DNA of 64,000 nucleotides, from the NCBI RefSeq assembly GCF_024298765.1, contig NZ_CP101210.1; one strand, given 5' to 3'. This document shows positions 6,001 to 9,000 of the stretch, piece after piece. Made by a program: the position numbers. Numbering within the stretch: the stretch's first letter is position 1; each line of letters starts with the position of its first letter. The stretch comes from Escherichia coli. Lineage in GTDB: Bacteria; Pseudomonadota; Gammaproteobacteria; Enterobacterales; Enterobacteriaceae.

Positions 6001-9000
6001 GAGATGAACATCCTGCCGTCACCCTCGCGGCAGCCCTGTTAAGCCACGACGCCGGGGAAGGGCATGTCTGTTTACCGCTCTCACGACTGGAAAATAACGA
6101 GGCGTCACATCCGCTGTTAGCAACCTGCGTCAGCGAAATCGGTGAGTTACAAAATTGGGAAGAATGCTTGCTGGCTTCACAAGCGGTCAGCCGGGGAGAT
6201 GAACCAACGCCGATGATCCTCTGTGGTGATCGTCTTTATTTGAATCGCATGTGGTGTAACGAGCGCACAGTGGCACGCTTTTTCAACGAAGTGAATCATG
6301 CCATTGAGGTTGATGAAGCTCTACTGGCGCAAACCCTGGACAAACTTTTTCCAGTAAGCGATGAAATTAACTGGCAAAAAGTTGCGGCGGCAGTGGCGCT
6401 GACGCGGCGGATTTCGGTGATTTCCGGCGGTCCTGGCACCGGTAAAACGACCACCGTAGCGAAGTTGCTGGCAGCCTTAATTCAAATGGCCGACGGAGAA
6501 CGCTGCCGTATCCGTCTGGCTGCACCAACGGGTAAAGCTGCCGCGCGCTTAACCGAATCTCTCGGCAAGGCTTTGCGACAATTACCGCTGACCGATGAAC
6601 AAAAGAAACGCATTCCGGAAGATGCCAGCACTTTGCACCGATTGCTGGGTGCGCAGCCGGGTAGCCAGCGTTTACGTCATCATGCCGGTAACCCGCTGCA
6701 TCTTGATGTGCTGGTGGTAGATGAAGCGTCAATGATCGATCTGCCTATGATGTCGAGACTGATCGACGCCTTGCCCGATCATGCGCGAGTGATCTTTCTC
6801 GGCGATCGTGATCAACTGGCCTCGGTTGAGGCTGGGGCTGTGCTGGGCGATATCTGCGCTTATGCCAACGCGGGCTTTACCGCCGAGCGTGCCGGGCAGT
6901 TGAGCCGCCTGACGGGAAGCCACGTTCCAGCAGGAACTGGCACAGAAGCGGCATCTTTGCGCGACAGCCTCTGCCTGCTGCAAAAAAGCTATCGTTTCGG
7001 CAGCGATTCTGGCATTGGTCAGTTAGCTGCGGCGATTAACCGTGGTGATAAAACGGTAGTGAAAACCGTTTTTCAGCAGGATTTTACTGATATCGAAAAA
7101 CGACTTTTACAGAGCGGCGAAGATTATATTGCGATGCTTGAGGAAGCTCTTGCGGGTTACGGACGTTATCTGGATCTGTTGCAAGCGCGTGCCGAGCCGG
7201 ATTTAATCATTCAGGCGTTCAATGAGTACCAGCTTTTGTGCGCCCTGCGGGAAGGGCCGTTTGGCGTGGCTGGACTGAATGAGCGAATTGAGCAGTTTAT
7301 GCAACAGAAGCGCAAAATTCATCGTCATCCGCACTCTCGTTGGTACGAAGGCCGACCGGTGATGATTGCCCGTAATGACAGCGCGCTTGGGTTGTTTAAT
7401 GGCGATATTGGTATTGCGCTGGATCGCGGGCAGGGGACGCGCGTCTGGTTTGCGATGCCGGACGGCAATATTAAGTCTGTGCAACCGAGTCGCCTGCCAG
7501 AGCACGAAACGACGTGGGCGATGACGGTACATAAATCGCAGGGATCGGAGTTCGACCATGCGGCGTTGATTTTACCGAGTCAACGCACGCCGGTAGTAAC
7601 GCGAGAGCTGGTTTACACCGCAGTGACCCGCGCGCGTCGCCGTCTGTCGCTGTATGCCGATGAGCGCATATTAAGTGCGGCAATCGCCACTCGTACTGAG
7701 CGGCGCAGTGGTCTGGCGGCGTTGTTTAGTTCGCGGGAATAAACGTGATTGCCTGATGCGACGCATGCGCGTCCTGTCATGCCTCCGGGCATTGCGCATA
7801 TGCGCATCTGGCGATTTCCGTCGCTTACCCTAAATCCGCCATCAACACCTTTGATTTGATGTAGGTCGGATAAGGCGTTCACGCCGCATCCGACGATGAG
7901 CGTCAATACCTGATGCGATGCTAGCGTGTTTATCATGCCTCCAGGCATTGCGCATGTCGCATCTGGCGATTTCCACCACTTACCCCAAATCCGCCATCAA
8001 CACTTTGGATTTACGCTGGTAGTTGTACAACTGCTTTTTGCTCTCGGGTAGTAAATCAATATCCACCGGGGTAAATCCACGTTCCTGGAACCAGTGAATA
8101 CTGCGCGTGGTCAGCACAAACAATTTGCTTAAGCCGCTCTGCTTCGCCTGAGCGGCAATGCGTTCCAGCAGAACCTCGCCCCGTGATGAACTGCGGTAAT
8201 CCGGGTGAACTGCCACACAGGCCATTTCCCCAATCTTCTCTTCCGGGAACGGATAGAGCGCGGCGCAGGCAATAGTCGTGTTATCGCGCTGAATAATGGT
8301 GAATTTGTCGATTTCCATCTCCAGCTGCTCGCGAGAACGGCGTACCAGAATACCTTGCTGCTCCAGCGGGCGAATCAACTCCAGAATACCGCCAATATCG
8401 TTGATTGTTGCGCGACGAATCTGCTCGGCGCTTTCCATCACAATCTGCGTACCGATACCGTCGCGTGAGAACAACTCTTGCAATAGCGCGCCATCTTCCT
8501 GATAACTGATTAAATGACAGCGACGCACGCCGCTGCGGCAGGCTTTCACTGCGCCACGCAAAAAGCGCACCGTACCGGAGTTGTAATCACCTTTCTCTTC
8601 CTGGGCTTCTACCCGTGCTTGCGCTTCGTTAGGGAAAAGTTCGGAGACAATATCACCGTCGTCATTAGTGACGCCCTGGGAAGAGCAAAAACCAATCATC
8701 TTTTCAGCTTTCAGTTTGATGGCCAGTTGAGTGGCAATCTCTTCCGAGGTCAGATTAAAGCTCTCGCCAGTGACTGAAACAGCGACCGGCCCCATTAGCA
8801 CTATTGCACCGCTGTCCAGTTGACGATGGATCGCGTCTTCATCAATCCGCCGGATACGCCCGCTATGGCAGTAATCCACGCCGTCATCGACGCCCAGCGG
8901 CTGGGCGATAATAAAATTGCCACTGACGACGTTGATATGCGCGCCCTGTAGCGGCGTGTTATTGAGACTCATCGACAGGCGAGCAGTAATATCCAGTTGC

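Follow-up and report, generated by a model that had tools for sequence, protein, structure and literature searches.

How does the last part of a gene come to stand twice, once in place and once as a remnant beyond a repetitive extragenic palindrome (REP)? The question is raised by the spacer between argA and recD in the stretch of Escherichia coli DNA analysed here, 64,000 nucleotides of contig NZ_CP101210.1 (assembly GCF_024298765.1; hereafter the window), where the 3′ end of argA recurs on the far side of a Y-type REP, and it is raised a second time in the same window at mltA. Both features very probably belong to one class, a REP-nucleated local duplication that is neutral and polymorphic. 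The fuller statement, that REPs or the bacterial interspersed mosaic elements (BIMEs) built from them nucleated local duplications downstream of genes, that joining independent of the REP-associated tyrosine transposase (RAYT) is the likelier route, and that the results are neutral and polymorphic, is one to which we give slightly better than even credence.

The genes recD (5916..7742, + strand, stop TAA at 7740-7742, taken from the open reading frame (ORF) list and the annotation of the identical strain 104 record) and argA (7980..9311, - strand, stop at 7980-7982) are convergent, and the 237-bp spacer between them has five parts: copy A, the trinucleotide GAT, the Y REP, a linker and copy A′. 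The window and strain 104 are 100% identical over the regions tested. Copy A (7743-7857) begins next to recD with an 82-bp spacer unit (7743..7824), delimited by alignment with K-12, B2 and other alleles and by a scan for REP cores, which combines a long imperfect hairpin with a degenerate Z-type REP (~7750-7786) and is the counterpart of the entire 81-bp spacer of unduplicated strains. It ends with the argA pseudo-tail (7825..7857, - strand), a non-functional 33-nt copy of the last 10 codons and stop of argA that differs from the real tail at 3 positions. The 3 nt GAT separate this pseudo-tail from the GTAG foot of the Y-type REP, a palindromic unit (7861..7894, - strand) whose + strand reads GTAGGTCGGATAAGGCGTTCACGCCGCATCCGAC, with the GTAG on the + strand; a hairpin is predicted here in both RNA folds, and the same 34-mer also occurs in the BIMEs at mutT-yacG and holC-pepA. 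A 14-nt BIME linker (GATGAGCGTCAATA; 7895..7908), recognised by comparison with the BIME downstream of ycfP, leads from the Y REP to the next Z-type REP. Copy A′ (7909-8012) then repeats the spacer unit (7909..7979), with a Z-type REP (~7908-7944) and the remaining hairpin lying directly downstream of the real argA stop, and ends in the real argA tail (7980-8012), which pairs with the pseudo-tail. The argA gene itself is intact and its product, WP_000237947.1, has the same accession as in K-12.

A repeat search returned three blocks in this spacer, 7803-7857 against 7958-8012 (55 nt, 89%), 7777-7799 against 7933-7955 (23 nt, 96%) and 7739-7772 against 7896-7929 (34 nt, 74%), and a gapped local alignment of 7738-7857 with 7895-8012 gave 98 identities in 119 positions with E = 1e-28 in that search space, which excludes chance. 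The aligned sequence takes in the coding tail (7825-7857 against 7980-8012) together with 45 nt of spacer that is not REP, so the match is not one over the REP consensus only. The original prediction, a repeat of ~105 bp that includes the end of argA and encloses a REP, therefore stands in its essentials: the repeat is real, the coding tail is part of it and the element between the copies is a canonical Y unit at 7861-7894. Its length has to be qualified. Positions 7861-7925, from the Y REP through the linker to the head of the Z REP, amount to a BIME pair of the ordinary head-to-head sort; the same 34-nt Y unit with a short linker and a Z unit behind it is also found downstream of mutT, holC and ycfP, and 7898-7925 is closely similar to the linker and Z head at ycfP. 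Because comparable pairs exist elsewhere, the leftmost ~35 nt of copy A′ are indistinguishable from family resemblance and may be generic BIME sequence. The unambiguous, locus-specific duplication comprises ~81 nt (7777-7857 against 7933-8012, ~89%). The Z-type REPs belong to the native spacer. Strong hairpins are predicted on both strands of the spacer (z -3.0 and -5.3); no Rfam match was found for it, and a terminator scan of it found no consensus terminator.

The same architecture had been noted at mltA and is confirmed there, with 44959-45236 repeated at 45310-45587 (278 nt, 97%) and a Y REP within the 73 bp between the copies. The mltA gene (44086..45183, + strand) is intact. Copy A (44959..45236, + strand) consists of the last 225 nt of mltA, a 33-nt spacer and a terminator hairpin, T1, that is not followed by a T-run. 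Between the copies lies what we identify below as the left part of a BIME, BIME-1 (45237..45309, + strand), comprising a 35-nt flank, the Y REP (45272-45305, reading GCCGGATGCGGCGTGAACGCCTTATCCGGCCTAC) and AAAT. Copy A′ (45310..45587, + strand) contains an mltA pseudo-tail, the spacer and a second terminator, T2, with its T-run, and ends just upstream of tcdA (start 45610). The pseudo-tail, 45310-45534, carries a RefSeq annotation as a partial '3D domain-containing protein' pseudogene. At both loci the Y REP is an imperfect palindrome of ~35 nt with a GTAG (CTAC) foot and a predicted hairpin, and both are intergenic members of a many-copy family: megablast placed the argA junction query at a median of 8 and the mltA query at a median of 38 places per genome. 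Both loci contain a direct repeat made of REP or BIME sequence and the 3′ fragment of an intact gene. A single Y REP stands between the copies at each; the repeat units do not each have a REP or BIME of their own.

The history of the mltA duplication can be read from its alleles, which we followed, like all population counts given here, in 5,426 complete E. coli genomes. The mltA-tcdA spacer is tri-allelic. Form S, in ~2,600 genomes, has no REP. Form B, in ~2,755 genomes, has a BIME in which 34 nt of linker separate a Y REP from a Z1-like REP in inverted orientation, and a 20-bp stretch of the terminator hairpin is directly repeated on the two sides of this BIME; the linker between Y and inverted Z1 of BIME-1 may be the L motif (~34 nt, bound by integration host factor). 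Form D, that of the window, was found in 73 genomes, all at least 99% identical at the joint. Roughly half of E. coli genomes carry the BIME-1 allele, and the 20-bp repeat on either side of it is AGGGTGAGGGRTAACCTCRC, with the T-run lost from the first copy; this region was seen in four extracts (L005, L006, L016 and L026) and is equivalent to 45217-45598 of the window.

Forms D and B share the left junction CCTCAC↓ATCCTGATT... (arrows mark joints or cuts), the 35-nt flank, the Y REP and AAATC, all identical, which indicates that D derives from the B allele and that its REP was there before the duplication. Past Y-AAATC the two part, B reading ATGCAAATCC... and D reading TGGCAGAAG..., which is mltA from 44960; the joint of form D may be written ...CCTACAAATC↓TGGCAG.... 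In form D the rest of the BIME, that is the putative L motif and the Z1 REP, has been replaced by mltA sequence, and microhomology at the joint amounts to a single C (0-1 nt). The mltA 'insert' is accordingly not an element with defined ends; it is a truncated pre-existing BIME. The same finding removes REP insertion with target duplication, one of the two mechanisms first proposed, since the mltA REP already stood in the BIME-1 parent; repeat lengths of 20, ~81-115 and 278 bp likewise do not fit a transposable insertion with target-site duplication. The other, slipped recombination between BIME units, fails because the gene-side partner at mltA (endpoint 44958/44959) lies within coding sequence and is not a BIME unit. 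An integrative element with a duplicated att site was also considered and rejected, as only 38-73 bp without an ORF lie between the copies.

The right-hand part of form D has another source. Its stretch into tcdA is identical to an S allele (extract L007), including the variant TTTTTATTC, and all four B alleles examined have TTTTTAATTC instead of TTTTTATTC. Six of the seven differences between the two mltA copies fall at sites that are polymorphic among 5 other strains, which points to allelic differences and not to decay in place. Among B alleles the nearest, those of IAI39 and its relatives (99.2%), differ from copy A at 4 sites and from copy A′ at 2. Form D is, as far as these comparisons of aligned alleles can tell, a mosaic, for which either the origin of the duplication or later recombination could be the source.

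At argA-recD the duplication is older and its record less direct. K-12 (spacer 61 bp) and B2 (spacer 81 bp) are unduplicated. Duplication type 1, with the junction of the window, is present in 97 of the 5,426 genomes, all at least 99% identical, and duplication type 2 in 33, so that copy number varies between strains as had been suggested. Type 2 has the same architecture, the identical 34-nt Y REP and the same linker start; outside the Y REP and linker start it is only ~78-85% identical to the window, and its pseudo-tail carries frameshifts. The pseudo-tails of types 1 and 2 are most parsimoniously aligned as sharing a 1-nt deletion. The common REP, linker start, architecture and deletion indicate that the argA duplication arose once and is old. 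A reading of the type 1 pseudo-tail as the remnant of a foreign functional argA, based on 3 in-frame synonymous differences, was dropped after the comparison with type 2; the differences are better read as the shared 1-nt deletion plus a 1-nt insertion, and we draw nothing from them. An origin in another species found no support, as two scans with one genome per species turned up, outside E. coli, no pseudo-tail/REP joint and no spacer of this type, but only chance matches in unrelated taxa.

The argA duplication also moves and is lost. The window and strain WL297 are 100% identical over 7651-8048 with flanks that show ~9 differences per 250 bp, which implies that short homologous-recombination patches carry the duplication from one background to another. 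In one genome, CS18F, the spacer is a single-copy hybrid whose left part is copy A and whose right part is copy A′ (extract L013, 600-690); it is a natural collapse, the product expected from recombination between the copies, and the genome retains the mltA duplication. Types 1 and 2 differ at ~40 positions in the spacer region and at ~1 per 100 bp in argA. The argA-recD spacer has at least 4 very different allele classes (61 bp, 81 bp, and duplication types 1 and 2) and is ~10x more diverged than the adjoining argA. With a spacer this variable, the 11-18% difference between the copies is a poor clock.

What the two loci have in common is the position of the joint. Each duplication ends on one side just beyond the Y REP, 3-5 nt from its GTAG/CTAC foot, and on the other within the 3′ end of the upstream gene, so that the gene tail with its spacer or terminator has been rewritten on the far side of the REP. 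Polarity is equal at both, the gene strand reading ...CCTAC, then 3-5 nt, then the pseudo-tail. In this sense the idea of a shared REP-linked mechanism is supported, with the REP at the joint and the same polarity in each case, even if insertion and slippage are the wrong words for it. The coding sequence (CDS) is complete and unchanged and the second copy is a dead remnant; the alleles spread as short homologous-recombination patches and are lost by recombination between the copies.

The mechanism that we favour for these duplications would start with a lesion or stall caused by the REP structure, at which an illegitimate, nearly homology-free strand join is made. Template switching or end joining during replication or repair are the likely routes, and the join may have occurred while DNA of another allele was recombining in. 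To leave a single REP, a second step would be needed: the redundant BIME copy could be lost between short direct repeats (T1/T2 at mltA), or the locus could recombine with a REP-less (S) allele. That the join took this RAYT-independent route specifically is a tentative proposal, to which we would give somewhat less than even odds. Compared with a purely TnpA-REP-catalysed route it appears somewhat more likely, as the cleavage rule of that enzyme (discussed below) is only half satisfied at mltA and there is one REP instead of one per unit, which favours an unspecific illegitimate join.

Several findings weigh against this account. A plain tandem duplication predicts a second REP or BIME after copy 2, which is absent at both loci, and the extra step just described must therefore be assumed. 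The junctions do not single out a mechanism, microhomology being 1 nt at mltA and the argA joint being mutated (GAT in type 1, TCC in type 2). A Y REP without the duplication was not found at argA-recD in any of the 5,426 genomes; with no parent allele there, the order of events is taken over from mltA by analogy. Outside the 73 genomes, none was at least 99% identical to a synthetic mltA-copy A′-tcdA donor. Finally, in a survey of 200 kb of K-12 with 22 REP clusters, only codA-cynR, which had been deliberately chosen, was truly duplicated (random controls 5/220); a second match was the internal period of a BIME array. The gene tail-REP-tail architecture is recurrent but rare, and, unusually, the two bona fide Y REPs of the window both sit at such joints.

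Other REP-associated rearrangements help to place these features. Shyamala, Schneider and Ames reportedly described, in 1990, tandem duplications of the Salmonella chromosome that were joined at REPs. Those cases share with argA and mltA a direct duplication that has a REP at its joint. The Salmonella duplications are large, with recombination between two REPs leaving a hybrid REP, whereas here, with units of 157 and 351 bp, no REP stands at the gene-side endpoint of mltA. A REP-to-REP tandem duplication was rejected for the same reason: the mltA endpoint is in the CDS, where only CTAC....C matches the REP in register, and the Y REPs at the joints are complete and not hybrid. Bachellier and colleagues are said to have reported, in 1997, polymorphism in the presence and length of BIMEs in E. 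coli intergenic regions. The strain-variable REP and BIME content of the spacers studied here is similar, with mltA-tcdA as a clear tri-allelic example, but the argA and mltA features include coding sequence and so go beyond polymorphism of BIME presence or length.

The closest relative is codA-cynR of K-12 (extract L024, 2477-2875), an already known case that is of the same kind as argA and mltA. It is a 200-bp tandem repeat with 97% identity, whose unit contains a Y-Z1 BIME, a hairpin and 84 bp of the 3′ end of cynR. As at argA and mltA, a gene 3′ end, a hairpin and a REP or BIME are directly repeated, the gene is intact and a pseudo-tail lies beyond the BIME. There are also differences. The BIME is present in both units at codA-cynR (BIME-X-BIME-X), while argA and mltA have a single REP (X-REP-X); the side of the Y REP next to the pseudo-tail is the head there and the GTAG foot here; and the codA-cynR joint, with one extra G, has AGCT microhomology (AGC↓T at both partner sites), unlike argA and mltA.

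A rival view is that our duplications are direct products of TnpA-REP (the RAYT encoded by yafM), according to which REP-bound single-stranded DNA (ssDNA) would be cut at C↓T, transferred and amplified as BIME plus gene fragment. We think this unlikely, though it deserves to be taken seriously. In the sections of Ton-Hoang et al. (2012; PMC3333891) drawn on here, TnpA-REP cleaves ssDNA in vitro at C↓T, also at more than 400 nt from a BIME, a distance that would span the 351-nt mltA unit. The same sections propose rolling-circle-like amplification of BIME units that sequester gene fragments, an explicit prediction of gene-fragment capture, and name codA-cynR, with the same layout and AGC↓T at both partners, as an example (Ton-Hoang et al., 2012). 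The gene-side partner at mltA is indeed C↓T (TTAC↓TGGCAG), and both joints lie 3-5 nt from the GTAG foot that the enzyme recognises. There is also a GTAG in mltA, 4 nt from the joint, that is exactly in register with that of the REP, and one in argA 6 nt past the end of the homology; both were noticed post hoc and we do not lean on them.

The same joints supply the objections. A TnpA-REP product should have C↓T on both partners, as the E. coli enzyme strictly requires it, and the one young, unmutated joint, that of mltA, has AAATC↓A on the BIME side, as in all B alleles examined. No C↓T is present at the joint on the strand that has the Y REP in the recognised orientation. The present-day argA joints are not C↓T, although these have mutated. 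The single REP copy, in place of one per unit, is not what the model leads one to expect, the boundaries of the 20-bp repeat in the BIME-1 allele read C↓A and C↓C, and activity in vivo is described in those sections as still undemonstrated (Ton-Hoang et al., 2012). A broader form of the idea would see the joints as in vivo footprints of REP-directed strand transfer, by TnpA-REP or by another factor that acts at the GTAG foot, with REPs repeatedly rewriting gene 3′ ends. We consider this improbable as well, about as much so as direct TnpA-REP catalysis. If it were true, the in-register GTAG and the gene-side C↓T at mltA would be recognition signals and not coincidence, and a catalogue of joints that are young and polymorphic would give a first in vivo view of RAYT activity in E. 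coli.

A third possibility, again with low probability in our judgement, is that the two copies are two alleles brought together by transfer, with legitimate recombination on one side and an illegitimate join at the REP foot on the other. Such events resemble the homology-facilitated illegitimate recombination that de Vries and Wackernagel are said to have described, in 2002, for the integration of foreign DNA in naturally transformable bacteria, where one legitimate and one illegitimate joint make a two-allele mosaic; the mltA allele appears likewise, but unlike such a product its mosaic could have arisen later. The mltA copies disagree at sites that vary within the population, the right copy with T2 is identical to an S allele while the left part is of B type, and the copy A spacer haplotype (ATACCGTTTTGACGG) is that of the WL297 S allele. 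Short recombination patches are, moreover, demonstrably common at argA-recD. The same mosaic would result, however, if either copy had later received DNA by homologous recombination, so the pattern is non-specific, and the donor allele that this view calls for is the one that, at 99% identity or more, was not found outside the 73 genomes. At argA the central motif GGCATTGCGCAT is present in all four copies (types 1 and 2), but in none of the single-copy alleles examined nor in the representatives of other species, a distribution that is better explained by duplication within one allele lineage.

Could both duplications be the ends of a single event? The two Y REPs are inverted relative to each other, with their GTAG feet outwards and each abutting a pseudo-tail that lies outside the enclosed segment, and the segment holds a horizontally acquired island. 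A single ~37.4-kb replacement (7861...45305, argA-amiC-T6SS island-tRNA-mltA, where T6SS is a type VI secretion system) that left the recipient tails as remnants would produce this picture. It is nevertheless refuted, since there are genomes with the argA duplication that lack both the island and the mltA duplication. WL297 has argA type 1 with the S allele at mltA, a sugar phosphotransferase system (PTS) module only and no T6SS, and ET201 has argA type 2 with the B allele at mltA and no island. The counts also differ, at 130 genomes (types 1 and 2) for argA and 73 for mltA, and argA has two diverged alleles while the mltA joints are all at least 99% identical. The strain distribution indicates that the two duplications are independent events, as was first supposed, and of different ages. 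Most form D genomes also have argA type 1, which fits a recent mltA duplication in a lineage that already carried the old argA one. The remaining alternative, that there is no true duplication and that generic REP/BIME consensus, chance or an assembly artefact gave the impression of one, has a negligible probability, for although the leftmost ~35 nt of the argA-side copy (74% identical between the copies) resemble other BIMEs as well as or better than they do copy A, 81 nt of non-REP spacer and argA tail match at ~89% and 278 nt at mltA match at 97%, and the structures recur in 130 and 73 independently assembled complete genomes.

The segment between the two loci has features of its own. A PTS/sugar-metabolism module and a complete T6SS cluster occupy 11054-43400, between amiC and the tRNA-fMet genes; the T6SS island is not located between the repeat copies of either duplication. 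The PTS module is present without the T6SS in WL297, and ET201, IAI39 and K-12-like strains have neither. Four tandem tRNA-fMet genes follow at 43474-43877 with a 110-bp period, and their number is polymorphic, with 4 in the window, 3 in the otherwise identical strain 104 and 2 in IAI39. Beyond mltA, the GcvB small RNA lies at 48551-48756 (- strand) beside gcvA, and a short REP-like palindrome is found at 59606-59636 (GCCGGATGCGACG...CGCCGTATCCGGC), for which the scan gave no matching core with a GTAG/CTAC foot.

The duplications are real and strain-variable and are apparently a harmless by-product of REP/BIME-associated recombination. We assign no function to the duplications themselves, and no effect on the ArgA or MltA protein is expected; effects on 3′-end formation of the argA, recD or mltA transcripts are possible. 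There are practical consequences. Pseudo-tails cause spurious partial-gene calls, of which the RefSeq '3D domain-containing protein' pseudogene is an example, and the argA-recD spacer is a hypervariable, recombining marker. More generally, there is as yet no settled account of the way in which REPs and BIMEs spread through enterobacterial genomes and reshape them. Polymorphic events with a known parent allele provide exact junctions on which models can be tested, and the mltA duplication, present in 73 genomes and derived from BIME-1, is such a case.

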